Shown piece by piece: positions 9,941 to 46,048 of a DNA stretch of 64,000 nucleotides; positions within the stretch are counted from its first letter, which is position 1, and each line of letters starts with the position of its first letter. Source of the stretch: a virus. A program made the position numbers and the translations under genes. The stretch lies in the IMG/VR virus record IMGVR_UViG_3300010373_000002, positions 49,402-113,401 of that record; one strand, given 5' to 3'. Below the pieces are notes generated by a model. It made no database searches and was not told the DNA's origin. It worked only from the letters and a program-made list of their open reading frames with translations.

Positions 9941-11815
9941 ATGCCGCTCAGCGTCATATTTTGCGATGCCGGAGTCGCCGGTTCCTACTCGGTTCGGATC
10001 AGGCAACTCTACGGCAGCCGTTTCTTTTTCGACTTCGGCGCACTCGCCTTTTCCGCCAGTCCCGGAACCCCGTCGCACGCCTTGACGGCGACCTCGGGAG
10101 CGATCGCGGGCGCGCTCGAATACTTCCTGGCCTTGACGCCGGTCAGCACTTGGATCGACGGCCAATACGCCGCCTATATAGATAACGGTTCCAACACGGT
10201 CGATATCGCCGGTTTCATTATGATCAACGGCGACTCGATTCCGTTAAGCCTCGCCCTGATTACCTCGTCGATCTTCGGAGCGACCGCCTCGTCGTTCAAT
10301 ACCGGCGGCACGATGGGAGCCAAGATCAACGCGGCAGGATCGGCCGGAGACCCATTGGCGAACCCGACCACGACCTACTCGGCCGGCGGCACGGTCGGCA
10401 ACCTGATCGTCACCAACCTCAACGAGTCGATCACGGCGGCGGCTTCCGCAGTCACTCTGGCGGCGGGACAAGTTCCGGCTCACTTCACCGCTTTGGCGAT
10501 CGACTTGGCATCGGGCGGCGTGACCGTCAAGACGAACAACGACAAGTCTAATTATGTCTTGGCGGCGGGACAAGTTCCCGGCAATTTCACGAGCCTTCAA
10601 ATCGACGCTTCCACGGGCGGCGTCACGGTCAAAACCAATAACGACAAGACCGGCTACGCCTTGTCGGCGGGCGAGCATAACCAGATCGCCGTCGATGTCT
10701 TGGACGCTCCCGCTTTGACCCACGACATCAACCTTACGATCGGCGCGAAGATCAATCTCTCCGGTTCCGCCGTCGATCCGCTCGCCAACGCGCCTTCGGT
10801 GTACGCCGCTCCCGGCACGGTCGGTCATCAATTAGTGACCAACCTGGATGAGATGATCAGCGCCGCCGCCGCCTCGGCCACTCTGGCGGCCGGTCAAGTG
10901 CCGGCCAACTTCACCGCCTTGGCAATCGACTCGGGAACCGGCGGCGTGACGGTTCATGCGAACTCGGACAAAACCGGCTACGCCTTGACCACTTCGGAGC
11001 ATACCGCCATCGCCGGGGACGTCTTGAACGCTCCGGCGGCGAGCTACGACACGAACTTGACGATCGGGGCCAAGATCAACCTTTCCGGTTCCGCCGTCGA
11101 TCCGCTCGCCAACGCCCTTTCGGTGTACGCGAATCCGGGAACGGTCGGCAACCTGATCGTGACCAACATCGACGAGAAGATCACTCATGCCGGAGACAGC
11201 GTGACTTTGGCTCCCGGTCAAGTTCCCGCCTTCTTCACCAGTCTCGCCATCAATCAACAGACCGGCGGCGTGAACGTCTTCGAGAACCTTGATAAATCCG
11301 GTTACGCCTTGACCTCGGCCGAACATCTCGCCGTTTCCTCGGACATCTTGAACGCGGTCGCTTCCACTTACGACGTCCCTTTTTCGATCGGAGCCAAGAT
11401 CAACGCTCTAGCGGTACTTGCCCCCGGCCAACTGCCGACCAACTTCTCGGCGATGGCGATCGACGCTTCCACGGGCGGCGTGACTGTTCACACGAACCAA
11501 GACAAGACCAACTACACCATTCTCGGCTCGTCGGGAACCGGCGGCATCTCGATCAATCACAACACGCCGACCACGGACAACCTTAGAGCGGTCAACACGG
11601 CCGGAGTCGGTATTCCCAACGTCCAAATCTTCGCCTTCCTGGCGAGCGATTACCAAGCCGGCAACATCGGCTCGGCGTTCCTGCAAGCGACGGCGGTCAC
11701 GGGACCGGACGGACGCTGGCTGAACACGATGATGCTCGCGCCGCAGACGTACACGTTCCTCTTCGGCGACCCCGGCGAATTCCAAACCGGCGCGAAAACC
11801 TTAACGATCACATAA
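9941..11815 (+). CDS. Repeat-rich virion fibre-like protein
   Basis: 108-aa tandem units (GAKIN..DPLAN..GQVP.NFT.LAID..GGV.V..N.DK.GY). Confidence 0.7.
   Translation: MPLSVIFCDAGVAGSYSVRIRQLYGSRFFFDFGALAFSASPGTPSHALTATSGAIAGALEYFLALTPVSTWIDGQYAAYIDNGSNTVDIAGFIMINGDSIPLSLALITSSIFGATASSFNTGGTMGAKINAAGSAGDPLANPTTTYSAGGTVGNLIVTNLNESITAAASAVTLAAGQVPAHFTALAIDLASGGVTVKTNNDKSNYVLAAGQVPGNFTSLQIDASTGGVTVKTNNDKTGYALSAGEHNQIAVDVLDAPALTHDINLTIGAKINLSGSAVDPLANAPSVYAAPGTVGHQLVTNLDEMISAAAASATLAAGQVPANFTALAIDSGTGGVTVHANSDKTGYALTTSEHTAIAGDVLNAPAASYDTNLTIGAKINLSGSAVDPLANALSVYANPGTVGNLIVTNIDEKITHAGDSVTLAPGQVPAFFTSLAINQQTGGVNVFENLDKSGYALTSAEHLAVSSDILNAVASTYDVPFSIGAKINALAVLAPGQLPTNFSAMAIDASTGGVTVHTNQDKTNYTILGSSGTGGISINHNTPTTDNLRAVNTAGVGIPNVQIFAFLASDYQAGNIGSAFLQATAVTGPDGRWLNTMMLAPQTYTFLFGDPGEFQTGAKTLTIT
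10322..11520 (+). repeat. Intragenic 324-bp period repeats
   Basis: AAGATCAA anchors at 10322, 10748, 11072 and 11396 (spacings 426, 324, 324); the first unit has an extra 102-bp sub-repeat. Confidence 0.85.
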
Positions 11816-11825
11816 GGAGTTTTAC

Positions 11826-12806
11826 ATGCCGGTCGTCTTAAATCCGATCACGGAAAACGACAATTCGCTGATCACCTTGAGCCAGTTGACGACGGCGATT
11901 CCCAACCTGTCGGCGGCCCAACTGGCGGATGCCCCTGCGGCCATCGTCGCCGCGTCGATCGCCATCAATCAGTGGACTAAAAATATCTTCGTTTTGACCG
12001 ATTACGACGAGATTTATAGTCCGTCCGTGACCGACGGACGACTGATCCTCAAACACTTTCCCGTCAACACGGTCTACCGGGTCTCCTCGGGGAAGACGCA
12101 AGCCGCCGCCGTCTTCAACTTCGCGACCACGCTCAACCAGCGAGCCTACATGGCGTTCTCCTACACCGGCGACGTCGCCTCGGGTCTCACGTATACCGGC
12201 CTCAACCTCACGCGAGTCTCCTCGGCGGTTTCGACGACGGTCAACCTCTTATTTTCAACTTACTTGACCATTCAATCTTTGGTCGATGCGATCAATGCCC
12301 TTGGAAGCGGCTGGGACGCCACGGTAACAACCGGCATGGGTCAGTGGCCCACCACCGAGCTAACCGGCGGCGAAGCGTCTCAGGGATGTATGGGAGGCAC
12401 TGGGGCGTGTCTGGCCGTGTTCGCTCAAGACATCGCCTACACGTCGCTTGATCAGCCGACCGGCGTCATCAACATCGTCTATCCCCAGTTCACCAACTTC
12501 CTTTATCAGAACTCGGGATCGCTGATCGAGTATTTCGACGGCGAGTTGCCAGGCCAAGGCGTCATCCCTTCGTTGTCTCCCAGGCAGGTTCGAGTCGCCT
12601 ACAACTCGGGATACGCGACGATTCCCGCCGACGTTCAAAGGGCGTGCATTTTAGCGGTGAACAACATCCTCAACTTCAGTCAACAAGATATCACGCTTCT
12701 GAAAGAGGATGTGCGAAATCATAAGATCGAGTTCAACACAAAAGGCATGATCCTCACGAAAACCGTTAAGCAAATCCTCTCGCCTTACAAAGACTGGAGG
12801 GTTTGA
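11826..12806 (+). CDS. Head-tail connector (gp6/gp15-like) with a large insertion
   Basis: LITL..L, AAS.AI..W, V.Y.SGY..IPADVQRAC, ILSPYK motifs. Confidence 0.75.
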   Translation: MPVVLNPITENDNSLITLSQLTTAIPNLSAAQLADAPAAIVAASIAINQWTKNIFVLTDYDEIYSPSVTDGRLILKHFPVNTVYRVSSGKTQAAAVFNFATTLNQRAYMAFSYTGDVASGLTYTGLNLTRVSSAVSTTVNLLFSTYLTIQSLVDAINALGSGWDATVTTGMGQWPTTELTGGEASQGCMGGTGACLAVFAQDIAYTSLDQPTGVINIVYPQFTNFLYQNSGSLIEYFDGELPGQGVIPSLSPRQVRVAYNSGYATIPADVQRACILAVNNILNFSQQDITLLKEDVRNHKIEFNTKGMILTKTVKQILSPYKDWRV

Positions 12807-14119: not shown

Positions 14120-14169
14120 CATAGACGACCCCGTTTTTCATAATCTTATCATAAAGGGGTCGATCTATG
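14120..14169 (+). promoter_or_regulatory. Hairpin occluding the RBS and start codon of the tail terminator gene
   Basis: CATAGACGACCCC pairs with GGGGTCG(A)TCTATG: 13 bp with one bulge. Confidence 0.55.
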
Positions 14170-15192
14170 CCCAATATCATTAAACGCCGTTCCGTTTTGA
14201 CGAACAATCCTAGCGACCCGAGCACGGCTCCGGTTCCCAGCGATCTATTGATCGTCAACAAGAGGCAGATTCCTCGCCGCAGGCCGACCGAGTTATTGGA
14301 AAGCCCCGGCGAGGATTTAACCTTGCTCCGGCGGATCGGCATAGAGTTTCCGCACGCCAGGGGAGCGGTCGCCAAAAAGGGAAACGTCTTCTTGGATCAT
14401 CCCTTTGTGGTGATCAAGCAAGATTTATTTGTCGAATTCAACATGGCTCGGGCGGCGTCTCGTTACGTCGCCAAAAAAGGTTCGGTCTTCATGGCCGATC
14501 CTTTGATTCAAGCGATTCCGCCGCCTCCCAACCCGCAGCTTGCCGTCTTCAACGCGGGATATAAAGCCGCTCGCTTGGCTCGATTTGATCAGGGTAAGGC
14601 GTTCGCCGAAAGTCCGGTATTGCAAGCGGTCGGTCCAGGCGACTTTCCGGTTTCCTCCGTCTTTCGAGCCGGATACGACGCCGGCAGATTCGCCCGATTC
14701 GATCGGGGCAAGGCGTCCTCGGCGAGTCCGCTCCTTAGGTTGATCCTGCCTCCCCTGGACCTCTTGGAAGCGACGATCTCCTACCTCCAAGGTCAAACCA
14801 GTCTCAACGCCTTATTCGGCCCTCCGCCGTGGATTTGGGACGTCGCGCCGATGGGGCAGCAATTCCCCTTCGTCCGCTTGGTCGATGTCAACGAATCGCC
14901 CTATTACTATGCTTCCTCCGGGACCGAAACCGGCAACGAAATCGACCGCAACCACTTCCAAATCTCCGTGTTCACCCTCGGCTCGAAACTGCAAGCGATT
15001 CAACTCGCCAACGCGATTCGTTCCGTACTCAACGACGCGCCGCTCAACTTCCAAACCGGCACGCTGCTCATGATCCGCTGCTCGTCGCGAGCGGTGGCGA
15101 CCTTAGACCCCGATCCAGGTCCGGGCGGCCAAAACGTCTGGCATTCCACGCTCATGTTCGTCGCCGACGTCCATCGGCAACTCCCGACTTAA
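14167..15192 (+). CDS. Tail terminator/completion protein (DUF3168-like C-terminal domain) with a repetitive N-terminal extension
   Basis: IWDVAP..FPFV, FQISVF, LANAIR.VL in the C-terminal ~145 aa. Confidence 0.65.
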   Translation: MPNIIKRRSVLTNNPSDPSTAPVPSDLLIVNKRQIPRRRPTELLESPGEDLTLLRRIGIEFPHARGAVAKKGNVFLDHPFVVIKQDLFVEFNMARAASRYVAKKGSVFMADPLIQAIPPPPNPQLAVFNAGYKAARLARFDQGKAFAESPVLQAVGPGDFPVSSVFRAGYDAGRFARFDRGKASSASPLLRLILPPLDLLEATISYLQGQTSLNALFGPPPWIWDVAPMGQQFPFVRLVDVNESPYYYASSGTETGNEIDRNHFQISVFTLGSKLQAIQLANAIRSVLNDAPLNFQTGTLLMIRCSSRAVATLDPDPGPGGQNVWHSTLMFVADVHRQLPT

Positions 15193-19519: not shown

Positions 19520-20227
19520 ATGGCTTTGCACGCTTCCGCAGGAATCAAACGGCTATTCACCGATCCGGTTCCGGTTTCGATCGGCGGTTCCGTGTATTTG
19601 GCTTCCGAGTTGACTCTCCGCGACATGGCGAGAATCGAACGCGATTGGGCCGATTCGTTCGCCGATCCGACTCTCGATATTCCCGCCGAGGACGAAGACC
19701 CGGAGCCGAACACTCGGAAGCGGCGGTTGCGTGCGGCCCTCGTTGTTTGCCGCGACAAGATGCCGCGTTGGGACAACGATACCGGAAGGACGATGCTGGC
19801 GACGGCCGAGGGGATCGCGACTCTCCTGCGTTACTCGATCGGCGGAAACCATGACGAACTCACTTTGGAAGACTTCGACGTAATGGCGTCCGAGATCACC
19901 GCGACCGAGTTTGCTCGCTTCGAGAAAGCCGCGTTCAACTCCGACCCGATGGACGAGATCGTCGAAGCCGCCGACCCCAAGCAATCGACCGAAGATAGCG
20001 AGCCGACCAACTGGGAAGAAATCCTCTCCGCGCTGGTTAAACAGTACGGCTTCAAACCTAAAGAAGTCGGCGATCTGACCATCTCCGAACTGACGATGAT
20101 CCTAGGCGACGGCAAACCAAACCATCGGCCCGTATTCACGGATATGGCCTCTTTGCTCGCTTACCACGAAGAACAAAAACGAATCTGGTTCGACGACGAA
20201 GAGTTAAAAGCGAAAGAGATTCAATAA
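19520..20227 (+). CDS. Tail assembly chaperone (G+T-like fused ORF)
   Basis: N-terminal V.IGG..Y..SELTLRD; C-terminal WEEI..L..YGF.P.EV..LTI.EL. Confidence 0.6.
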   Translation: MALHASAGIKRLFTDPVPVSIGGSVYLASELTLRDMARIERDWADSFADPTLDIPAEDEDPEPNTRKRRLRAALVVCRDKMPRWDNDTGRTMLATAEGIATLLRYSIGGNHDELTLEDFDVMASEITATEFARFEKAAFNSDPMDEIVEAADPKQSTEDSEPTNWEEILSALVKQYGFKPKEVGDLTISELTMILGDGKPNHRPVFTDMASLLAYHEEQKRIWFDDEELKAKEIQ

Positions 20228-21117
20228 TGGCAAGCGGCAATATTCAAGTCGGCTCGACTGTTTGCTCCTTTTTCTACGGCGATCCTGAGGCGAGAGATAC
20301 CGTCGTCGAGCGTGTGACCGAGTACGGGCCGGAAGCCGTCGTGAAATTCCAATGCCCTTACGCCTCTCGATTGCAAGTCGCTCAGACCTTGATGGGTACG
20401 GTCGTTTGGACCGGCAGTCAAGTCGTTCGCTTGAATCCGTTCCAATACCCGCCGCTCCCTTACCTTTATTGCTTGGAAATCGCCTCGATCGTCGGCTTGA
20501 ATCCGATCGTTGACCACACGGGTTGGCAGAGTTACAAGAGCGCCGTCATCACGGCCGTATTCCGCAGGCCGCTCTATCCTTTCATTAACGCCAGCCCAGC
20601 CACGACTCAAGCGGACCCCTCCGGTCAGCCCTACACCGTGACGCGGTTCTCTTCGACCGTGGATATGGTTCCGGCGGTCAGCGGTTCTTTTAGGTGGGCG
20701 AGCGGCAGCACTACCGGGGCGAACGCGATAGTACCCGACAACATTATTACCCAACTGCAATCTCAAACCCAAATAACAATGACAAGGTATATGATGCCAT
20801 ATATACCTTTGAATTATTTTGAGCAATTCAAGTGGAACGTCAATCTCAATCCGATCGCCTTCTCCGATCACACTTACCCCAAGGGAACCGTTTTGTTTTG
20901 GAATATCGAGTCGGAACCGACCGCCGACTCCGCCGGTAATTATTCCCAAAACGTGACCTATGTCATGCTAGCAAAAGCACATGACTGGAATATGTTTCCG
21001 AACCCTAAAGATACGGCGAACCCCGGCGCTCTCGACTTTGCCACAAGTACCGGATCGTTAAGCGGAAGTCCCGTCTATCCGTATCCATATTCAGACTTCT
21101 TCACTAACTTGCCCTGA
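20227..21117 (+). CDS. Distal tail/tail-tip protein
   Basis: Position after the TMP; VN...F....PKGTVLF pattern; translationally coupled. Confidence 0.55.
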   Translation: MASGNIQVGSTVCSFFYGDPEARDTVVERVTEYGPEAVVKFQCPYASRLQVAQTLMGTVVWTGSQVVRLNPFQYPPLPYLYCLEIASIVGLNPIVDHTGWQSYKSAVITAVFRRPLYPFINASPATTQADPSGQPYTVTRFSSTVDMVPAVSGSFRWASGSTTGANAIVPDNIITQLQSQTQITMTRYMMPYIPLNYFEQFKWNVNLNPIAFSDHTYPKGTVLFWNIESEPTADSAGNYSQNVTYVMLAKAHDWNMFPNPKDTANPGALDFATSTGSLSGSPVYPYPYSDFFTNLP

Positions 21118-21129
21118 TTTGGTGGTCCC

Positions 21130-21528
21130 ATGCCTCGCAACGGTCTTCCGCCATCGAAACAGAAACCGGGCAAGGCGATCACCGCCTCAAGGATTAACGA
21201 ATCCTCAATGGGCGTCTCCGCGCTCAATAGGATTCGCGGCGGCAACGGCGTCAACGTTCAGAATTTCGGCGGTATGCCGCTGATTACGGGGATGCCGTTC
21301 GAGGCTCTTGCCTTGGCTCAAGCCGGGGCAAGCGGCATTCTTGCAAGATCAGGCTCGACACCGAATAGCGGCGCTGTTACACTGTTATCATTGAGTGGCG
21401 GAGTTCTAGTCAACGGAAGCGCCGATATTGCGTGGAATATATCGAGCCAAGCCGTCTCGGCGAACGCTTATATCATTCTCGGAAAGATCGACGGCAACTG
21501 GTGGGTTCTGGTGGAGTCGTGTACCTAA
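21130..21528 (+). CDS. Tail-tip associated protein
   Basis: PGKAITASRIN start; ends IDGNWWVLVESC. Confidence 0.6.
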   Translation: MPRNGLPPSKQKPGKAITASRINESSMGVSALNRIRGGNGVNVQNFGGMPLITGMPFEALALAQAGASGILARSGSTPNSGAVTLLSLSGGVLVNGSADIAWNISSQAVSANAYIILGKIDGNWWVLVESCT

Positions 21529-21540
21529 CAGGGGAGTTCG

Positions 21541-21761
21541 ATGCGCAACTTCATTGCGAAGATCGGGCCGAATCAATCAAGGCGAACAAGAAGTCCGGCG
21601 AAGTGAACGCTTTCGCCTATGAGATCATGAGCGACACGCTCGTTCAAACCAAACCGATCGAAATCACAAACGATTGCCGGAATCACGATATCGCGGCAAA
21701 CTCTTTCGTTCTTGTCTCCGAAATCGCCGGTCAACTTATCGTAGTCGTGGAGGCGCTTTGA
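21541..21761 (+). pseudogene. Frameshifted paralog of the C-terminal domain of the upstream gene
   Basis: GGGGAG RBS and MRNFIAKIGPNQ; the frame changes at AATCAATCAA (21571-21580) to IKANKKSGEV...IAGQLIVVVEAL. Confidence 0.55.
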
Positions 21762-22201
21762 GCACGGCACGCGGAACATGGAAAGCCGTCGAGCGGAGGG
21801 TGGCGACCTTCTTCAAGACGAAGCGGGCCTACGGCTCGGGCAGCGGCGGCAGGCCCGACATCAGCAAGTCGGACACGACGCACCCGACCCTCTACATCGA
21901 AGCCAAACTCCGCGAGACTCATGCCGCCAGGACGCTCCACGACGACGTTCGCGAGAAGGCCAAGAAAGAGGGCAAGACTCCCGTCTTGGTCATGGCCGAC
22001 AAGTCTCGCCCCGGCTTCCTCGTCTGCGTCCATTGCGACGACTTGGCCGAGTTCATGCGGATCATGAACGAACAAGGCTTCATCGAAGACGACGATAACG
22101 AAGCGACCGCGAGAGCCGAGCGGATCACGCCGAGTAGAGAGAGAATCAGGGAACTCGCCAAAAGGTTTGCCGCGTTGCCTCCCAGGGAAGACTTGGACTG
22201 A
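21758..22201 (+). CDS. PD-(D/E)xK nuclease, Holliday-junction-resolvase-like
   Basis: WKAVERRVA..GSG..SD..YIEAK..GKTPVL; GGAGG RBS with a TTG start. Confidence 0.75.
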   Translation: MSTARGTWKAVERRVATFFKTKRAYGSGSGGRPDISKSDTTHPTLYIEAKLRETHAARTLHDDVREKAKKEGKTPVLVMADKSRPGFLVCVHCDDLAEFMRIMNEQGFIEDDDNEATARAERITPSRERIRELAKRFAALPPREDLD

Positions 22202-22282
22202 CTCTGTCGATCATCGGCGACACATAAAATAGTTTGTCGATCATATTTCGCGTTTCATGACACACAAAACAAAGACTTACTA

Positions 22283-22534
22283 ATGAAAACTGCCTTCGCT
22301 TGGACCAAAAACAATCGGATCATTATCGTTCCATTGAATCGCGTCGATCCGAGACCCGCGTATCCCTTCGCTTCGTGGATTCCGACCTTGATGTCCAATC
22401 GAATCGCCGATCAAATGGAAACCGAATTCGAGGTTCGGGTTTACGAGGACGACAACCCCAAACCCTCGGTCCAGACTTTGTTCGTCATGGATCACGACAA
22501 TCAGCGTCATTCGATCGCCATCTTTTCACATTAA
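22283..22534 (+). CDS. Hypothetical protein (83 aa)
   Basis: ATG ORF after an AT-rich spacer containing two copies of TGTCGATCAT. Confidence 0.5.
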   Translation: MKTAFAWTKNNRIIIVPLNRVDPRPAYPFASWIPTLMSNRIADQMETEFEVRVYEDDNPKPSVQTLFVMDHDNQRHSIAIFSH

Positions 22535-22538
22535 ACGA

Positions 22539-22772
22539 TAGACTCTCGTCTTCGGACGGGTTTAAGCCCTCTCTCTGGAGACTGTTTCCCTTGGGAATAG
22601 TATTTCCAAGCAACAGCAGCGGGTAGACCGGACCCACGTAACAGTGGGAACGCCTCGGAGCCGGAAACAATCTTTGGGACGAACAAGGATCGTAAATAGC
22701 CGCCGGTCGGGTTGCCAGAGAAGAACCATGGGTTCTTGGGGGACGCTTCGACGAGGGGCGTCCCTTTCTTTT
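22539..22772 (+). ncRNA. Candidate structured ncRNA or leader ending in an intrinsic terminator
   Basis: cUUCGg hairpin, nested stems closed by TCTCTGG/CCAGAGA, and a GC stem followed by TTTCTTTT. Confidence 0.55.
22740..22772 (+). terminator. Rho-independent terminator
   Basis: GGGACGCTTC/GGGGCGTCCC stem (two G-U pairs) followed by TTTCTTTT. Confidence 0.75.
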
Positions 22773-22810
22773 CTCGCCCTTTGGATCGTTGCCTGCGCCG
22801 AGGGCGAGAC

Positions 22811-24493
22811 ATGCAGTTTAAGCCGATTCAGCGCAAATCCACGTTCGCGCCTGGGAATCTTTCCGGGTCCGCAGGCTCATCGACTACGAACAACGGGCCG
22901 TCGAAACTCTTCACGCCGACGAAGCGGAAGAGTCCGTCTACCCCAGGTATGTCCGCAGGCGGTTCCTCGGGAGGCGGAGGGGGAGGCGGCGGCGGGACGG
23001 GATGGAAGAAGAACTCGCCCGGTTGCCCTTGCTGTAGCTCCGTGGGCACGTTCACGCTGACCGTGACGGTCGAAGGTTGCGACAACACTTTGCCGGAACT
23101 TCTCCTCTCGGGCGTCACCGTCACGCTTCTCCTGGGCGGATCGACGATCGGCACTTGCACGACTTCCTCGCTCGGTCAGTGCGTCTTCACGGCACTTTCC
23201 AGCGGCACGTACACCGTCCAAGTGACGGGATTGCCGACCGGATACGCCTCATTCACTTCGGCGAGCGTTTCGGTGACGGCGAACACGAATTACACCGCTC
23301 AATGCACTCCCGATTCCACCCATATTTGTTGCGGAGTCTGTCCGGGACTACCGATCCCCAAGACGCTCACCTTCAACGATTCGATCGGCGATCTCACCGC
23401 GACATGGCAATCGTCTCTCTTGGGCGGCGGCGTCATGTGTTGGGCGGGAACTCAGAACTACACGATATCGACTTGCACTTATGATTCTACTTGCACGACT
23501 TTTTCCGCGCCGAGTTCTCAAACGATACCGATTCATTATGAATTGTACTGCCATCACGACGTCGTATCCGGTCTCTATTCGTTTCAGATGGATGCCGGCT
23601 TCTGGCCGACTTGCCCATCGCTCGGGTGTTATGTTCCCGGCGGCGGCGGGTCAAGCGCCTTGTTTATCCAAGGCCCCTTCTCGCCCGCGAGCGTTTCCTG
23701 TTCTCCTTTCTGCGCCCAGGGGTTCACCGTCAATCCTTTGGGACCGCTCTACACGGTTTCCGTTCGCGACCCGGCGGTCTCTTTTTCGAGTTGCAACAAC
23801 CCCGCTCAGTTGACGGTAAACGTCCAGGGTTGCAACGCCTTGAACTTGTCGGGAGCGACCGTCACGGCATCGCTGACCGGACAGCCGAACGTCGTCGGCA
23901 CAACGGACGGCGGCGGCAATGCCACGCTCTTGTTGCCCGCCACCGGCACTTGGACGATCACGACGACATCTTCTCGATTCGGGACGGACACTTCCTCGAA
24001 GACGGTCACTGGAAACGGTCAGATTTTAACCCTGGCCGTCGTACTGACTCCCACATCCAGTTATGTCTGCGTTTCCGGGTGCGCTCAACCTCTGTCGAAG
24101 ACGCTGAAACTCACCGATCCCAACAACACGATTACGCCGCTGACGCTGACCTATGACGCCGTTTCTACGACTTGGATCGGTTGCTACGTCAAGTCGGCGG
24201 TCGTTTGCCAGCAGAACGTCGGTCTTGGTTGCAATGGAGCTATCGGCGGTTGCGCGGTCGCTTACTCGTACAATACCGCCGGATTCCTCACCGCCTACTA
24301 TAATGCTTGCGACGGGGCCGGAGTGCCCACGCCGACGAATTGTCCTCGCGGAGCGGGATTCACGAACGAGTTCACCGGCTTTCCGTCGAGCGTGACCAGC
24401 CATTGCCCGACCGCATTCGCCTACTCGGCCCACTTGGAACTGCCTTCGACTACCGGAATCTTAGTGAACGGGACCGTCTCGATCTCCGAATAA
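22811..24493 (+). CDS. Cys-rich tail-tip/receptor-binding candidate with two tandem Ig-like + Cys-rich modules
   Basis: Poly-Gly linker, PGCPCC, duplicated V.V.GC..LSG.TVT and C..C..P..KTL...D. Confidence 0.65.
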   Translation: MQFKPIQRKSTFAPGNLSGSAGSSTTNNGPSKLFTPTKRKSPSTPGMSAGGSSGGGGGGGGGTGWKKNSPGCPCCSSVGTFTLTVTVEGCDNTLPELLLSGVTVTLLLGGSTIGTCTTSSLGQCVFTALSSGTYTVQVTGLPTGYASFTSASVSVTANTNYTAQCTPDSTHICCGVCPGLPIPKTLTFNDSIGDLTATWQSSLLGGGVMCWAGTQNYTISTCTYDSTCTTFSAPSSQTIPIHYELYCHHDVVSGLYSFQMDAGFWPTCPSLGCYVPGGGGSSALFIQGPFSPASVSCSPFCAQGFTVNPLGPLYTVSVRDPAVSFSSCNNPAQLTVNVQGCNALNLSGATVTASLTGQPNVVGTTDGGGNATLLLPATGTWTITTTSSRFGTDTSSKTVTGNGQILTLAVVLTPTSSYVCVSGCAQPLSKTLKLTDPNNTITPLTLTYDAVSTTWIGCYVKSAVVCQQNVGLGCNGAIGGCAVAYSYNTAGFLTAYYNACDGAGVPTPTNCPRGAGFTNEFTGFPSSVTSHCPTAFAYSAHLELPSTTGILVNGTVSISE

Positions 24494-24508
24494 GGAGTTT
24501 CCTCTTAA

Positions 24509-24916
24509 ATGTCGTTTGTTGATAAGTGCCCCGCGTGTCCGCTGCGCCAATCGACCTTGGCGTGTCCAGCAGTCACGACGGGGCATTTTCGTTTTTGCGA
24601 ATTAGTGGCGGAAGGTCGAACCGACTATATTGACTATCTCCTAGAAGAAGCCGGAGTAAAGCCGACTATCATTCCGATAAAACCGCCGTGCGATCCCTCG
24701 GAAGACAAGAGATTGGCGGCGAGAGCACTCATGGAACTCTCCCGAGAAGCCAGGTCTTGCCCGCACCGCGAGGCTTGCGGTTGCGTCTACGCCTACTGTT
24801 TGCCCGGCGGTTTCAGGCCGGGAGAGAAGGTTTCGCTCCAAGATTGCGTTGAATGTATAAAAAATAACAAATACGATACGGCGGAAAAAGAAAAATCTCA
24901 AACAGCGCTTGACTAG
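24509..24916 (+). CDS. Cys-rich small protein
   Basis: AAGGAG RBS; several CxxC and CxC clusters. Confidence 0.65.
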   Translation: MSFVDKCPACPLRQSTLACPAVTTGHFRFCELVAEGRTDYIDYLLEEAGVKPTIIPIKPPCDPSEDKRLAARALMELSREARSCPHREACGCVYAYCLPGGFRPGEKVSLQDCVECIKNNKYDTAEKEKSQTALD

Positions 24917-25837: not shown

Positions 25838-26416
25838 TCACTCGGCGTAACCTGGATCGCCCATCGTGTAGTTGATGATCCTGCCGATAAATTTGTTCTT
25901 CCATTGCTTATCGTTCCACCAAAGAGACGACAAGACGGTGTGCCCAAGCCAAGAGTCTTCCGTCTTAGCCGACTGCGCTCCGTGAATCGCGAACGGACTG
26001 TCTTTTGTAGCGCCGACGATCAAGAGTTCGGCAACTCCTTTTTCGGCGTCGATGTTCTCGATTCTGAATATGCACCCGTAGTCCAACTCCGTCTCGTCGG
26101 ACTCTTTCTTTTTGTATGGATTCTTGATCGGAAGCGGATTAGTCTTCTCCCAAACCAGCGCAAGGAAAGGGCCGGTTCCAATCGTGCGGACCAATCCATC
26201 CAACCTCTGTCTCTGTTCCGGCGTCAGACGTTTTTGCGAGCCGAGCCAATCACGCTCCTGTTCCTCGGAACCGAAATATGGCGACTCGGCATCTGGTTTA
26301 GGCATTCCTTGTTTGGCGATTTCCGCCGGTTTCTTCGCCGACCTGGCGTACATGAGGGCGGCCACGCAAACGACCAGCACAAGGATTATGGCCGCCCGCA
26401 CTCTCGAACGTAACAT
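25838..26416 (-). CDS. Membrane-anchored protein (moron or superinfection-exclusion candidate)
   Basis: GAGGAG RBS, N-terminal TM helix, opposite strand. Confidence 0.65.
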   Translation of the reverse strand: MLRSRVRAAIILVLVVCVAALMYARSAKKPAEIAKQGMPKPDAESPYFGSEEQERDWLGSQKRLTPEQRQRLDGLVRTIGTGPFLALVWEKTNPLPIKNPYKKKESDETELDYGCIFRIENIDAEKGVAELLIVGATKDSPFAIHGAQSAKTEDSWLGHTVLSSLWWNDKQWKNKFIGRIINYTMGDPGYAE

Positions 26417-27397: not shown

Positions 27398-27437
27398 GTT
27401 GGAAAGGCTTTCTGTTTGGCGGTGTTCGAAATTCTTT

Positions 27438-27476
27438 CAGTGTCCCCTTGACACTGGCTTTCGAATACCGTATGAT
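27438..27476 (+). promoter_or_regulatory. Strong sigma70 promoter with an overlapping palindromic operator
   Basis: TTGACA(27448)-17-TATGAT(27471); CAGTGTC-N5-GACACTG covers the -35. Confidence 0.75.
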
Positions 27477-27606
27477 TGGTCGTGGGTGGAAGAGGAAACA
27501 ATATTCTTCCCAGATTACCCACTTCCTCAGACAGTATTGTAGACCGTGACAACAATAAGTCAATATGGTGGTTGTCTTTTTTTCTCAAAATGGTTGAGGT
27601 AGGTAA

Positions 27607-32852: not shown

Positions 32853-32873
32853 GTAGCGAAAAACGCAGAGGAT

Positions 32874-33218
32874 AGACACAAGTTGGTTCGCCTGAAAACG
32901 GCGACAGGTTCGGGACGGCCCTTCCTGACAAAAAAAGTCTTGGCCGTGCAGTGAAAAAAGCTGCTGGGGTTACAACCTCCCCCAGCGATTGCCAGAGGTA
33001 TATCTAGCCGGGGGCCTCGTTCGCACGCCCGAAACCACCTATTATCCCGAGAAGGGTTTTCCAAGCAACGCGGAGCAGTAACGATCTGCCACAGGGGCCG
33101 CGTCTTGGTCGATATGGCATGTAGCCACTCTGATTGCCGGAGTGGTTTGAAAAAATGGTGGGTCAGTACGGTTAGTAGTGCGGGAATCTGCAATAAGTTT
33201 TTGGTAGTGCTTGTGTCT
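32874..33218 (+). ncRNA. Candidate ~345-nt multi-stem structured element (ncRNA or ssDNA origin)
   Basis: Closing helix AGACACAAGT/GCTTGTGTCT encloses at least 8 hairpins; no credible ORF. Confidence 0.55.
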
Positions 33219-33320
33219 TAACGAACGAAGAAGCAAAGCCTCCGCATAATACTAATATGCCGGGGGGATGACCCCACTCTGTATTGGTGAAATTAACTAA
33301 TTAGTTTTCAAACCAGACTC

Positions 33321-33349
33321 TTGACTTTTCATCGTGACACTGTTACTAT
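33321..33349 (+). promoter_or_regulatory. Sigma70-type promoter for the HNH gene
   Basis: TTGACT-17-TACTAT; the spacer contains a GACACTG half-site. Confidence 0.65.
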
Positions 33350-42549: not shown

Positions 42550-45500
42550 ATGCTCAACGATAGCGTTTCCACGTCCAACGGTCACAAAAACGGCCAAGTT
42601 GCCGACGATTATCTTCACCGTCATTGCGGTATGAAGTTCGAGGCTACGTTCAACCAGACCGACCCCTTAATCACGAATAAGGATCAATTCAAGTGGGGCA
42701 AGAGGCCCATCAAGATCACGGCGGCTGACGGTAAGGTCGTGTTCGAGCGGAAAGAGTGCGAGTTCCCCGAGTCATGGTCCGACAACGCTTGCCAAGTGGT
42801 TGCGTCGAAGTATTTCTACGGGACTCCCGGCAAGGAGCCTTGCGAGAACAGCGTTGACGAACTCGTGACTCGCGTGGTCAACACGATCGCCGACTGGGGC
42901 TTCAAAGACGGTTACTTCGACCGAGCCGAGGCGTGGCGATTCGAGCGGGAATTGTACTCGCTCTGCGTCGGCCAGTATGCCAGCTTTAACTCGCCGGTTT
43001 GGTTTAACGTCGGTCTTCACGATCACTATGGAGTCTCAAGCGATTCAACTGGGTCCCGATGGGATGACGAGAAGAAGCAGGCTGTTCCTGCCGAGGATGG
43101 ATATAAGTATCCACAGGCAAGCGCATGTTTTATCTTGGGTGTCGATGACAACATGGATAGCATTCTCGAACTCGCTAAAACCGAGGGAATGTTGTTTCGT
43201 TATGGGTCTGGCGCTGGCTCTGATCTTTCCACGATCCGATCAAGTAAGGAATTTCTTACCGGCGGCGGCAAGCCTTCCGGTCCTCTTAGTTTTATGATAA
43301 TCTACGACGCCGTGGCTAGCGTAGTTAAGTCGGGTGGAAAAAACCGTCGCGCCGCGAAGATTCAGACATTGAAATGTTTTCATCCAGACGTTGTAGATTT
43401 TATCGAATGTAAGCAGAAAGAAGAGAAGAAGGCTAAAGCCCTTATCGCTCAAGGCTACGAGGCGAACTACAACGGCGAAGCGTACTCGTCTGTTTGTTTC
43501 CAAAACAGCAACCTCTCTGTTCGTCTCAGCGACGACTTCCTTTACGCCGTCGAGAACGACTTGCCGTGGACCACGAAAGCGGTGACGGACGGTCGCGACA
43601 TGGAGACGTTCCAGGCTAGAGACATCCTCCGCAAGATCGCCGAGAACGCTTGGCAATGCGGAGACCCCGGCGTCCAGTACGAGGACACGATCCAGAAGTG
43701 GCACACGCTCCCGAACACGGCCCCGATAAATTCGTCGAACCCATGCTGTTTTGTCGGCGAGACGTTAATCAAGACTTCTTTTGGTAGCCTATCTATCGAG
43801 TACCTGGCAAGCCGAGACTCCGAGGGCGGCTGTCCTCTTCCGTCCGTGGTTTCTTACGACAAAGAAGATAAATGCACGCAATGGGGAGAAATCGTTAAGG
43901 CTTGGAAGTCTGGCGAGACAACTGAACTTGTGGAAGTGACGATCCGCTCGGGAGAAAAATTTCGTTGCACGCCGGAGCACGTTTGGTACGTGGATGGGTT
44001 CCATCCATGCGAAGCTAAAGACTTAATGGGTCATCGGGTAGATTTCTACTTGGATTCCTCTAGTGCGACACAAAAAGAATTAGTTGTTTCCGTCGAAACA
44101 CTGAAATTGGCCGATCCTGTTCCGGTTTACGATATCGAGGTTAGGGACAATCACAATTTCACAATCACATCTGAAAATTCTCTTCGTGGGTATTTCGTCA
44201 GTAATTCGGAATACATGAGCATTGATGACAGCGCTTGCAATTTGTCTTCTTTGAACCTCGTTAAGTTTCTGCGTGCCGATGGAACCTTCGACACGGATCG
44301 CTATCGTGCCGCTGCTCGCCTCATGCTAACTGCCCAAGAGATTCTTGTTTCCCGTTGCGGCTACCCCACGAAGAAAATCGCCGAGAACGCACACCGCTTC
44401 CGCCAGCTTGGCCTTGGGTATGCGAACCTCGGCTGTCTCTTGATGCGTATGGGACTCCCCTACGACTCCGACGAAGGTCGCCACGTCGCCGCTTGCCTCA
44501 CGTCGCTGCTAACGGCCGAGGCGTACCGAACGAGTGCGGAGATCGCCGGAATCAAGGGACCGTTCGAGGGATTCGAGGTCAACAAAGATCCGATGCTTAA
44601 CGTGCTAGCGATGCACGCCCAAGCTGGAGACGATTTATTGAGGGCCGGAATTCCTGGAAGGCTTGACTACGCTCAGTCTGAGGCTTGGACGGAATGCTCG
44701 AAGTTGGCGCAAAAGTATGGTGTCCGCAATTCGCAAGTCACTGTTATAGCTCCAACTGGCACGATTGCACTCATGCAAGATTGCGACACAACAGGCATTG
44801 AGCCTGACCTCGGCCTTGTGAAAACTAAGTATCTTGCCGGCGGCGGCACAATGAGGATCGTCAACCAGAGCGTCAAGGCGGCGCTCAAGAACCTCGGCTA
44901 CTACGACGCACCTGTCTCGGACATCCTTGAATATATCGAACAGCATGGAACCGTCGAAGGTTGCAAGTCGATCGAATCGAAAGACCTTGCCGTCTTCGAC
45001 TGCTCGAATCCCGGCACGAAGGGCGGCCGGGCGATTCACCACATGGGCCACGTCAAAATGTTGTCGGCGGTCCAGCCGTTCGTCTCGGGCAGCATCTCGA
45101 AGACGGTCAACATGCCCGAATCCGCTACCGTCCAAGACATCTCCGATACCTATCTTGAAGGGTGGAAACTCGGCCTGAAGTGTATCGCCATCTACCGGGA
45201 CAATTCCAAGGGAAGCCAACCCCTCCAGATCGGTGACACTAAGGAAGGGGAGAAGACGGAACGGATCAAGGTCTCTACGCCGAAGGAGACTCCCGAGGAA
45301 CAACTTAAAAGGCTAATGAAGGCTCTGAATCCTCATGCGAGTCCGTCGCTAATCGAAGGCGGTATGAAATATCTCCCGGTCCCCAACAAGCGAGAGCGGC
45401 TTCCCGACACTCGCGAGAGCATCACTCACAAGTTCAACATCGGCGGCCATGAAGGCTACTTGACCGTTGGACTGTTCCCCGATGGACGCCCTGGGGAGCT

Positions 45501-45993
45501 ATTCGTGACCATCAGCAAGGAAGGCAGTACGATTGCCGGTCTAATGGATATGATCGGCGTGACGGTCTCCCTGTGCCTCCAGTACGGCGTTCCGCTGCAA
45601 GTGCTGGTGGACAAGTTCAGTCATACGAAGTTCGACCCATCCGGGTTTACAAAAGAGAAGGACATTCCGATCGCGTCCAGCATAGGCGACTATGTGTTCC
45701 GATGGTTGGCGATGAAGTTTATTCCCGGCTACCGCGAGGCGAACACACCGAAGCGAGAGGAGAAGGCGGTAATTGCCGGCGACTTATGCGACGGTTTGGC
45801 CGAACGAGAGAAGCAAGAAGAAATGTCCGACCGAGCGATGAAGAAACTGACCGACAGGCTTCATGAAGTCAAAATCTCCCATCCCAAGCCTCAGACCGAC
45901 GCCCCGATCTGTGACGTGTGCGGCTCTCTGACGGTTCGATCGGGAACCTGCTACGCTTGTCGTAATTGCGGCTCCAGCATGGGTTGCTCTTGA
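42550..45993 (+). CDS. nrdJ: Class II (adenosylcobalamin-dependent) ribonucleotide reductase, intein-containing
   Basis: FNSPVWFN, PQASACFI, NPC/SEY, SACNL.SLN, IAPTGTI, ISKTVN, TSCPD-type C-terminal domain and terminal Zn ribbon. Confidence 0.95.
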   Translation: MLNDSVSTSNGHKNGQVADDYLHRHCGMKFEATFNQTDPLITNKDQFKWGKRPIKITAADGKVVFERKECEFPESWSDNACQVVASKYFYGTPGKEPCENSVDELVTRVVNTIADWGFKDGYFDRAEAWRFERELYSLCVGQYASFNSPVWFNVGLHDHYGVSSDSTGSRWDDEKKQAVPAEDGYKYPQASACFILGVDDNMDSILELAKTEGMLFRYGSGAGSDLSTIRSSKEFLTGGGKPSGPLSFMIIYDAVASVVKSGGKNRRAAKIQTLKCFHPDVVDFIECKQKEEKKAKALIAQGYEANYNGEAYSSVCFQNSNLSVRLSDDFLYAVENDLPWTTKAVTDGRDMETFQARDILRKIAENAWQCGDPGVQYEDTIQKWHTLPNTAPINSSNPCCFVGETLIKTSFGSLSIEYLASRDSEGGCPLPSVVSYDKEDKCTQWGEIVKAWKSGETTELVEVTIRSGEKFRCTPEHVWYVDGFHPCEAKDLMGHRVDFYLDSSSATQKELVVSVETLKLADPVPVYDIEVRDNHNFTITSENSLRGYFVSNSEYMSIDDSACNLSSLNLVKFLRADGTFDTDRYRAAARLMLTAQEILVSRCGYPTKKIAENAHRFRQLGLGYANLGCLLMRMGLPYDSDEGRHVAACLTSLLTAEAYRTSAEIAGIKGPFEGFEVNKDPMLNVLAMHAQAGDDLLRAGIPGRLDYAQSEAWTECSKLAQKYGVRNSQVTVIAPTGTIALMQDCDTTGIEPDLGLVKTKYLAGGGTMRIVNQSVKAALKNLGYYDAPVSDILEYIEQHGTVEGCKSIESKDLAVFDCSNPGTKGGRAIHHMGHVKMLSAVQPFVSGSISKTVNMPESATVQDISDTYLEGWKLGLKCIAIYRDNSKGSQPLQIGDTKEGEKTERIKVSTPKETPEEQLKRLMKALNPHASPSLIEGGMKYLPVPNKRERLPDTRESITHKFNIGGHEGYLTVGLFPDGRPGELFVTISKEGSTIAGLMDMIGVTVSLCLQYGVPLQVLVDKFSHTKFDPSGFTKEKDIPIASSIGDYVFRWLAMKFIPGYREANTPKREEKAVIAGDLCDGLAEREKQEEMSDRAMKKLTDRLHEVKISHPKPQTDAPICDVCGSLTVRSGTCYACRNCGSSMGCS
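43747..44205 (+). other. Mini-intein (153 aa, no homing endonuclease)
   Basis: Starts CFVGET; block B CTPEH; block F VYDIEV..NHNF; ends VSN followed by a +1 Ser. Removal restores NPCSEY. Confidence 0.92.
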
Positions 45994-46002
45994 TAACGCC
46001 GT

Positions 46003-46036
46003 GGGCCGGTCCTCTTTATGGGGATCGGCCCTTTTT
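46003..46036 (+). terminator. Rho-independent terminator after nrdJ
   Basis: GGGCCGGTCC/GGATCGGCCC stem followed by TTTTT. Confidence 0.85.
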
Positions 46037-46048
46037 CACCGCCAGGGA

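Follow-up and report, generated by a model that had tools for sequence, protein, structure and literature searches.

A stretch of 276 bases, lying in the tail module of a phage between a small orphan reading frame (ORF83) and a Cys-rich gene, raises the question of what it is for: whether it is translated, whether it gives rise to an RNA of its own, or whether it controls the gene that follows. The window in which it was analysed comprises 64,000 nucleotides (bases 49402-113401), the last 64 kb of a complete virus record of 113,401 bp, which has direct terminal repeats and was recovered from a soil metagenome assembly. Over roughly the first 26,000 positions of the window practically all long ORFs lie on the + strand, as do all genes around the gap at 22535-22810. 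In addition to the tail-completion protein listed in Table 1, this block includes an ORF of tape-measure size (1090 aa) and a number of small ORFs of the tail module.

Table 1. Features in and around the gap, in positions of the window.
Feature	Position	Strand	Description
Tail-completion protein	14167-15192		Pfam PF11367
PD-(D/E)xK-type nuclease	21758-22201		PHROG 'Holliday junction resolvase', E 1.6e-6; motifs visible in sequence
AT-rich spacer (82 nt)	22200-22282	+	3' of nuclease gene; two exact TGTCGATCAT copies
ORF83	22283-22534	+	83-aa orphan; no SD; unstructured start region
Non-coding gap (276 bases)	22535-22810	+	Between ORF83 and the Cys-rich 560-aa tail-module gene
Spacer part of gap	22535-22737	+	Local hairpins 22582-22616, 22633-22648, 22670-22690, 22722-22736; tentative closing helix 22572-22578/22715-22721
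Intrinsic terminator	22738-22775	+	Stem 22738-22766, then tract UUCUUUUCU
SD-sequestering hairpin	22772-22809	+	Covers GAGGG 22800-22804
Cys-rich 560-aa tail-module gene	22811-24493	+	Presumed target of the control region

Upstream of the nuclease gene, the Logan contig of the source run carries an extra C after position 21573 with respect to the window. With this base ATG 21541 opens a 74-aa ORF whose stop overlaps the nuclease start TTG 21758 (CTTTGA), and without it the ORF from ATG 21541 ends after 22 codons. The extra C may be a genuine polymorphism or a difference of 1 nt between assemblies.

Coding potential of the gap

Open frames do exist in the gap, and three coding readings can be formulated. 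A - strand ORF of 93 aa (22812..22531) spans the gap exactly and has, at 0.031, the highest codon score of the six frames. A + strand ORF from ATG 22728 starts with MGSWGTLRRGASLSFLALWIVAC, a charged-hydrophobic-IVAC pattern which, as read from the sequence, would fit a lipobox. Finally, the tail gene itself could be extended upstream to TTG 22712. That the gap codes for protein in any of these forms is nevertheless extremely improbable. The score of the - strand ORF is below that of most real genes, and the + frames in the gap score from -0.19 to -0.26. The - strand ORF has no SD, no Pfam hit and no homolog among 5.8 billion protein clusters, where even a self-entry is missing, which means that it was called by neither gene pipeline. 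Within a 26-kb block of + strand genes it would stand alone in the reverse direction, and by our estimate an open frame of 93 codons has at this GC about a 3% chance per frame. The hydrophobic stretch, in turn, is the translation of the terminator U-tract and a hairpin arm. On the codon scores, the homolog and Pfam searches and the lack of an SD, a coding function of the gap was rejected.

The + strand ORF (22728-23060) runs across the terminator and, in a different frame, into the first part of the Cys-rich gene; it has a codon score of -0.25 and no Pfam hit, and is probably a by-product of the pyrimidine-rich terminator tail. Reading of the sequence showed no slippery site of the X XXY YYZ type, and a programmed frameshift from this lipoprotein-like frame into the tail gene is unlikely.

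The predicted intrinsic terminator

An intrinsic terminator had been proposed within the gap by a first-pass annotation made from the letters of the sequence, and this assignment holds. The GC-rich stem of 11-12 bp, with 7 G-C pairs and the 5-nt loop GACGA, has a predicted energy of -20 kcal/mol (z -4.5) and a pairing probability of 0.99 in every context folded. It is directly followed by the U-rich tract, which is the sequence arrangement of an intrinsic (Rho-independent) terminator. In a genome-wide scan for hairpins with a T-run, the site at 22765 reached -24.3 kcal/mol over the preceding 43 nt; about four + strand candidates in 113 kb, this one included, attain -24 kcal/mol or lower. The feature is specific for the + strand, the hairpin being followed on the - strand by CCCCCAAG and no U-run, and it is situated 204 nt beyond the stop of ORF83.

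The other very strong + strand candidates are found at 1230-1285 and 45990-46045 of the window and at about 26030-26085 of the genome (-30.6, -25.5 and -27.1 kcal/mol, with the T-runs at window positions 1274 and 46032 and genome position 26074). Those at 1274 and 46032 sit just past the ORFs 757-1227 and 42550-45993, respectively, which suggests that the phage uses intrinsic terminators at a few operon boundaries.

The end of the U-tract overlaps the 5' arm of the hairpin that follows, so that RNAs released at the terminator would stop at the foot of this hairpin, which would be present in read-through RNAs only. On the + strand from 21384 to 24908 the promoter scan, whose consensus may not be that of the host or of the phage itself, gave no sigma-70-like site; as far as this consensus applies, the downstream gene must therefore depend on read-through. 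The source sequence occurs in DNA contig runs only, no RNA run being listed among the runs that carry it.

The hairpin over the SD of the Cys-rich gene

Immediately downstream, a perfect 9-bp stem ending 1 nt before ATG 22811 had been noted. The stem, TCTCGCCCT/AGGGCGAGA at 22772-22780/22801-22809, was confirmed and found to cover GAGGG, the SD of this ATG at 6-nt spacing. The hairpin has a predicted energy of -20.4 kcal/mol (z -3.3); in longer contexts it forms with P 0.63-0.94, and the GAGGG is paired with P 0.92-1.00. Folding of the region from -50 to +20 at each of 38 gene starts of the window gave the SD zone of ATG 22811 a pairing probability of 0.98, which ranked first, and the whole initiation region ranked second. 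The SD is located inside a stable helix, which is the arrangement of the translational operators of the T4 e / I-TevI type. Since most genes of the phage have GGAG-type SDs, occlusion of the SD should matter. By our own estimate about 7 perfect 9-bp stems with short loops are expected by chance per 64 kb, and the argument for this hairpin therefore rests on its position and not on the existence of the stem. No sigma-70-like site is present in or near 22740-22810, again with a consensus that may not be the host's or the phage's own.

The two available start calls for the Cys-rich gene differ: Logan/ENA has ATG 22811 (560 aa) and JGI has GTG 23042 (483 aa). ATG 22811 is preceded by an SD and GTG 23042 is not; if GTG 23042 were the true start, the hairpin would not cover a used SD. 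The 77-aa extension that separates the two calls is Gly/Ser-rich and includes a run of nine Gly. The gene product is also Thr/Ser-rich and contains CarboxypepD_reg and SpaA prealbumin-like domains. The label of receptor-binding gene which it had been given is only a putative one, derived from the position of the gene plus the prealbumin-like domains.

Folding of the part upstream of the terminator

The 203 nt ahead of the terminator (22535-22737) had been described as a candidate novel structured RNA, with a multibranch domain closed by TCTCTGG/CCAGAGA. All sequence elements listed in that description are present in the window at the positions given for them. Most of the helices, among them the closing helix, the nested CTGTT/AACAG helix with the CTTGGGAA/TTTCCAAG hairpin, the terminator and the 9-bp SD hairpin, recur in the MFE fold of 22535-22812 (-112.6 kcal/mol). 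The local hairpins of this fold are CTTGGGAA/TTTCCAAG (P 0.89), CCCAC/GTGGG (P 1.0), ATCTTTG/CAAGGAT (P 0.92) and AAGAACC/GGTTCTT (P 0.88). For two further elements the letters are present but the predicted ensemble does not favour the pairing. The cUUCGg hairpin has a P of 0.02, because GGG 22558-22560 is used by a GGGT-TTAA-GCCC hairpin (P 0.95), and the GACCGG/CCGGTC helix (P 0.18) is a minority conformer whose enforcement costs just 0.7 kcal/mol.

Folding better than shuffled controls is seen for the whole 278 nt, with z = -2.86 on the + strand versus -1.46 on the - strand and 11 G-U pairs among the 94 of the fold. Most of this z derives, however, from the terminator and the SD hairpin, of about -20 kcal/mol each; the 203 nt ahead of the terminator have a z of -1.67, with 9 of 200 shuffles equally stable, and the 150-nt multibranch core has a z of -2.29. 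In a GC-corrected ranking among about 1,500 windows of the phage's genome, the 150-nt core falls in the top 4.8%, compared with the top 7% for the 204-nt stretch, and several other gaps of the genome have z values of -3 or below. The closing helix depends on the context, its P being 0.70 in the terminated RNA and 0.00 once 22813-22900 is included. With these approximately 90 nt of downstream mRNA the P of the ATCTTTG hairpin drops to about 0; the CCCAC hairpin is retained, and so are the terminator and the SD hairpin. The multibranch domain thus appears in the MFE fold but is context-dependent and only within the top 4.8% of windows. We regard the local hairpins, the terminator and the SD hairpin as solid predictions, and the multibranch domain as a plausible but unremarkable one.

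More extreme + strand fold z values were recorded at 27398-27606 (-3.25) and at genome positions of about 22499-22891 (-3.66) and 11777-11953 (-3.41). Two further relations of the gap sequence were considered and discarded. An imperfect complementarity of 35 nt exists between 22656-22690 and codons 9-20 of the downstream gene; antisense pairing of the gap RNA with the downstream mRNA is not special, its duplex energy ranking 423 among 2260 genome windows. Kinship with the gap 32853-33333 (481 nt, between a 644-aa and an HNH-like ORF) was also rejected, as the 12-mer and the 9-mer which the two gaps have in common occur in reversed order and are for this reason chance matches. The + strand fold z of that second gap is -0.37.

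Searches for relatives and known families

The element had not been matched to a known riboswitch or ribozyme from its letters, and a scan of the whole window against Rfam 15, in which the families covered include riboswitches, ribozymes, sRNAs, introns and GOLLD/ROOL/HEARO, agrees with this, giving no hit at the gathering thresholds. At E values up to 10 the region 21400-23200 returned only RF00519 (suhB/mmgR; E = 6.3). Like that family, 22719-22778 has a terminator hairpin with a U-run behind it and a small hairpin in front; unlike a member, it scores 15 bits against a gathering threshold of 41, and membership was rejected since the alignment rests on the generic terminator.

ARAGORN detected no tRNA or tmRNA. 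Neither repeats nor paralogs of the element above 15 nt occur in the 113-kb genome, and a template/variable repeat of the DGR type was rejected because the genome holds no second copy. A covariance model built from the single sequence of the core found only itself in its own genome and had no match in the records of two distant relatives. At the DNA level there are no relatives in 50,697 phage GenBank records (blastn 'distant' mode), and sequence patterns of the element matched nothing in IMG/VR or GTDB genomes. The single match in JGI metagenomes was dismissed, as it consists of a 20-mer with nothing else common to the phage and is expected by chance.

The flanking proteins were followed as well. 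For the downstream gene, ORF83 and the 296-aa tail protein, no IMG/VR protein relative was confirmed. The profile of the tail protein retrieved two loci at 24-38% identity, with a different downstream gene order, and none in GTDB genomes; in an exhaustive HMMER search of 1.84 billion representatives its best non-self relative had 37-39% identity. At 90% identity, the clusters of five flanking proteins have no members from outside the two assemblies of this phage. The phage is an orphan, and phage GenBank, IMG/VR, the JGI metagenomes and the GTDB genomes yielded no homolog usable for covariation. To our knowledge, phage-encoded structured RNAs outside the known families are few. The 296-aa tail-module protein (20227-21117) matches nothing in Pfam or PHROG; its family comprises 179 relatives detected at E up to 1e-3, none more than about 39% identical, and its conserved motifs include DPSGQPWTTT and DWN.

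A further reading of the gap is that of a conditional switch, in which the multibranch domain would sense a ligand, a protein or a phage antiterminator and thereby set termination versus read-through and exposure versus occlusion of the SD. The order of the parts (structured domain, terminator, SD hairpin) would fit, as would the apparent dependence of the downstream gene on read-through. With the terminator pairs forbidden, however, no upstream segment pairs with either arm: the arms stay single-stranded, and the fold loses the full 20 kcal/mol with nothing replacing it. In view of the lack of any competing terminator/antiterminator or anti-sequestor pairing, a switch of the riboswitch type is unsupported. 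Furthermore, no Rfam riboswitch matched even at E up to 10, no homologs show a conserved aptamer core, and the multibranch domain is not robust to the presence of downstream mRNA. We therefore consider a conditional switch very unlikely. Of the original proposal of an attenuator gating the Cys-rich gene, what stands is the presence of the terminator and the SD hairpin directly before ATG 22811; what does not is the alternative pairing.

ORF83, the AT-rich spacer and a variant from a second soil

ORF83 has a codon score of +0.185 and a TIR pairing of 0.04, and its sole protein match is itself. In the AT-rich spacer upstream of it the exact copies of TGTCGATCAT are located at 22205-22214 and 22235-22244, 30 nt apart. 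Allowing up to one mismatch, the motif occurs 16 times in the window versus 5.2 expected, and it may be an operator or a phage-specific promoter element. The spacer as a whole may serve ORF83 and the gap RNA as a promoter or operator. In 22200-22282 the promoter scan gave no sigma-70-like site, with a consensus that may not be the host's; the best -10 candidate is TAAAAT at 22225-22230. A TGTCG-N8-CGACA palindrome is located at 22205-22222.

A second soil run, from a different study, contains a low-coverage population about 98% identical to the phage, in which the gap stretch is covered by a few contigs of 150-200 nt. One of these, a variant contig of 193 nt, joins 22154-22265 to 22533-22613 and skips 267 nt (ORF83 and its leader), with a 3-nt AAA microhomology at the junction. 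ORF83 is an indel, polymorphic and dispensable, and in the variant the AT-rich repeat region abuts the gap sequence; this shows the gap, in its 5' part at least, to be more than just a trailing end of ORF83. Variant and window have no difference in the 81 nt of the gap and five in the 112 nt upstream, one of which turns T22225 of the -10 candidate into C. With an overall divergence of about 1.8%, zero changes in 81 nt are expected about one time in four, so that this is no evidence of constraint.

The variant also bears on the reading of the gap as a small RNA of approximately 240 nt (22535 to about 22775), with or without ORF83, stand-alone or derived from a 3'-UTR, which would be transcribed from a promoter in the AT-rich 22200-22265, end at the terminator and act in trans or bind a protein, ORF83 being a later insertion between promoter and RNA. 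In its favour, the AT-rich region adjoins the gap sequence where ORF83 is missing, the 81 nt are unchanged against 5 differences in 112, and a strong terminator follows the stop of ORF83 at a distance of 204 nt. Folding is better on the + than on the - strand (z -2.86 versus -1.46; 11 G-U of 94 pairs), the closing helix reaches its P of 0.70 in the terminated RNA, and the absence of an SD and the open start region of ORF83 are as expected near a transcription start. On the other side, 22200-22282 has no sigma-70-like promoter, and the best -10 candidate is altered in the variant (T22225C). The unchanged 81 nt carry no sign of constraint, and the fold is unexceptional (top 5-7% of windows), other gaps scoring better. 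The complementarity to the downstream mRNA is ordinary (rank 423 of 2260), and paralogs in the genome, matches in distant relatives and an Rfam family are all lacking. On balance such an RNA appears rather unlikely. A more specific form of it would be an undescribed phage sRNA of about 240 nt (22535 to about 22775) with a four-arm core closed by TCTCTGG/CCAGAGA, transcribed from the AT-rich repeats at 22200-22265, its 5' part kept in the absence of ORF83, and acting on targets of the host or the phage, either as a protein scaffold or in trans, with the SD hairpin separately silencing read-through; this we regard as quite improbable.

The same indel suggests a comparison with the phage morons, which are promoter-gene-terminator cassettes between late genes of temperate phages (Hendrix and colleagues). 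ORF83 resembles them in being an orphan with presence/absence polymorphism inside a tail module, with an AT-rich region upstream and a terminator downstream. It differs in that the terminator is 204 nt past ORF83 and stays with the gap sequence kept by the variant without ORF83, and in that the promoter is not demonstrated. Of the moron features, the terminator and a dispensable, polymorphic ORF83 were found, and no sigma-70-like promoter was scored, a consensus from which that of the host may differ. In the corresponding reading the terminator would close an ORF83 moron unit, and the rest of the gap would be a recombination scar with chance hairpins and without any control of the downstream gene. 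This would agree with an ORFan that is present in one strain and absent in the other with AAA microhomology at the junction, with the presence immediately upstream of the PD-(D/E)xK nuclease and a further small ORF, where the tail module is otherwise compact, and with spacer fold statistics near background. It is at odds with the SD hairpin, which is positioned exactly over the SD and extreme among the 38 starts, with the terminator staying on the gap side of the indel, 204 nt from ORF83, and with the variant, in which the 5' part of the gap is still present without ORF83. We take a moron boundary to be distinctly unlikely.

A proposed two-step brake on the Cys-rich gene

The best explanation of the gap is, in our opinion, a cis-acting two-step brake on the Cys-rich gene, made up of a leaky terminator and translational occlusion; judged from the sequence, we would give it about an even chance of being correct. 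From the features with their computed stabilities and ranks we infer termination, read-through and reduced translation as follows. Transcription would arrive on the + strand from the tail operon, and possibly also from a promoter in the AT-rich 22200-22282. The polymerase would then meet the terminator at 22738-22775, which is strong but has an imperfect U-tract, and a share of the polymerases would stop. Transcripts reading through would carry the hairpin of -20 kcal/mol that buries GAGGG 6 nt upstream of ATG 22811, so that few ribosomes would load. As a result, the output of the Cys-rich gene would be kept low relative to that of the upstream tail genes. The approximately 200 nt of 22535-22737 would be a non-coding spacer with a few stable local hairpins, no global fold being needed. 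The brake does not explain why some 200 nt of extra non-coding sequence are retained, nor why the variant without ORF83 keeps at least 81 nt of the 5' end of the gap.

Both steps of the proposed brake have counterparts in well-studied phages. In the T4 genes e, soc, 49 and I-TevI the SD or AUG is sequestered in a helix in transcripts initiated upstream, which limits 30S binding, and shorter transcripts that can be translated start from a late promoter within the structure (PMC3014915). As in these genes, the element studied here stands directly before a phage gene for which level or timing counts, and its stable helix takes in the SD and the bases that follow it up to the AUG. In distinction to T4, no promoter-like site was found in or after the hairpin by the sigma-70-like consensus, from which that of the host may differ, and there is no sequence similarity.

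For the first step, the closest analogy is the PR'-tR' region of lambda, where a 194-nt leader, the '6S' RNA, ends at a terminator that is read through by Q antitermination before the late genes. The gap would share with it a leader of a couple of hundred nucleotides, a strong intrinsic terminator directly upstream of the gene and the need of the downstream region for read-through. It differs from PR'-tR' in being located in the middle of a tail module and not at the head of a late operon, and neither a Q-like gene nor a qut site or a mapped promoter was found.

After this analysis the terminator and the SD hairpin are what remains of the candidate RNA, and both belong to familiar classes of cis-regulatory element. 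The potentially novel part is the one upstream of them: the element matches no described RNA family, and its fold is supported neither by its statistics nor by comparison with relatives. The locus would matter more if these upstream 200 nt were a discrete conserved RNA, a stronger claim that the present data do not support. If the brake is true, the phage would be one more example of tuning the ratio of a tail-tip or fibre protein to the bulk tail proteins, a reading which is unsurprising and is useful for the annotation of an orphan phage.
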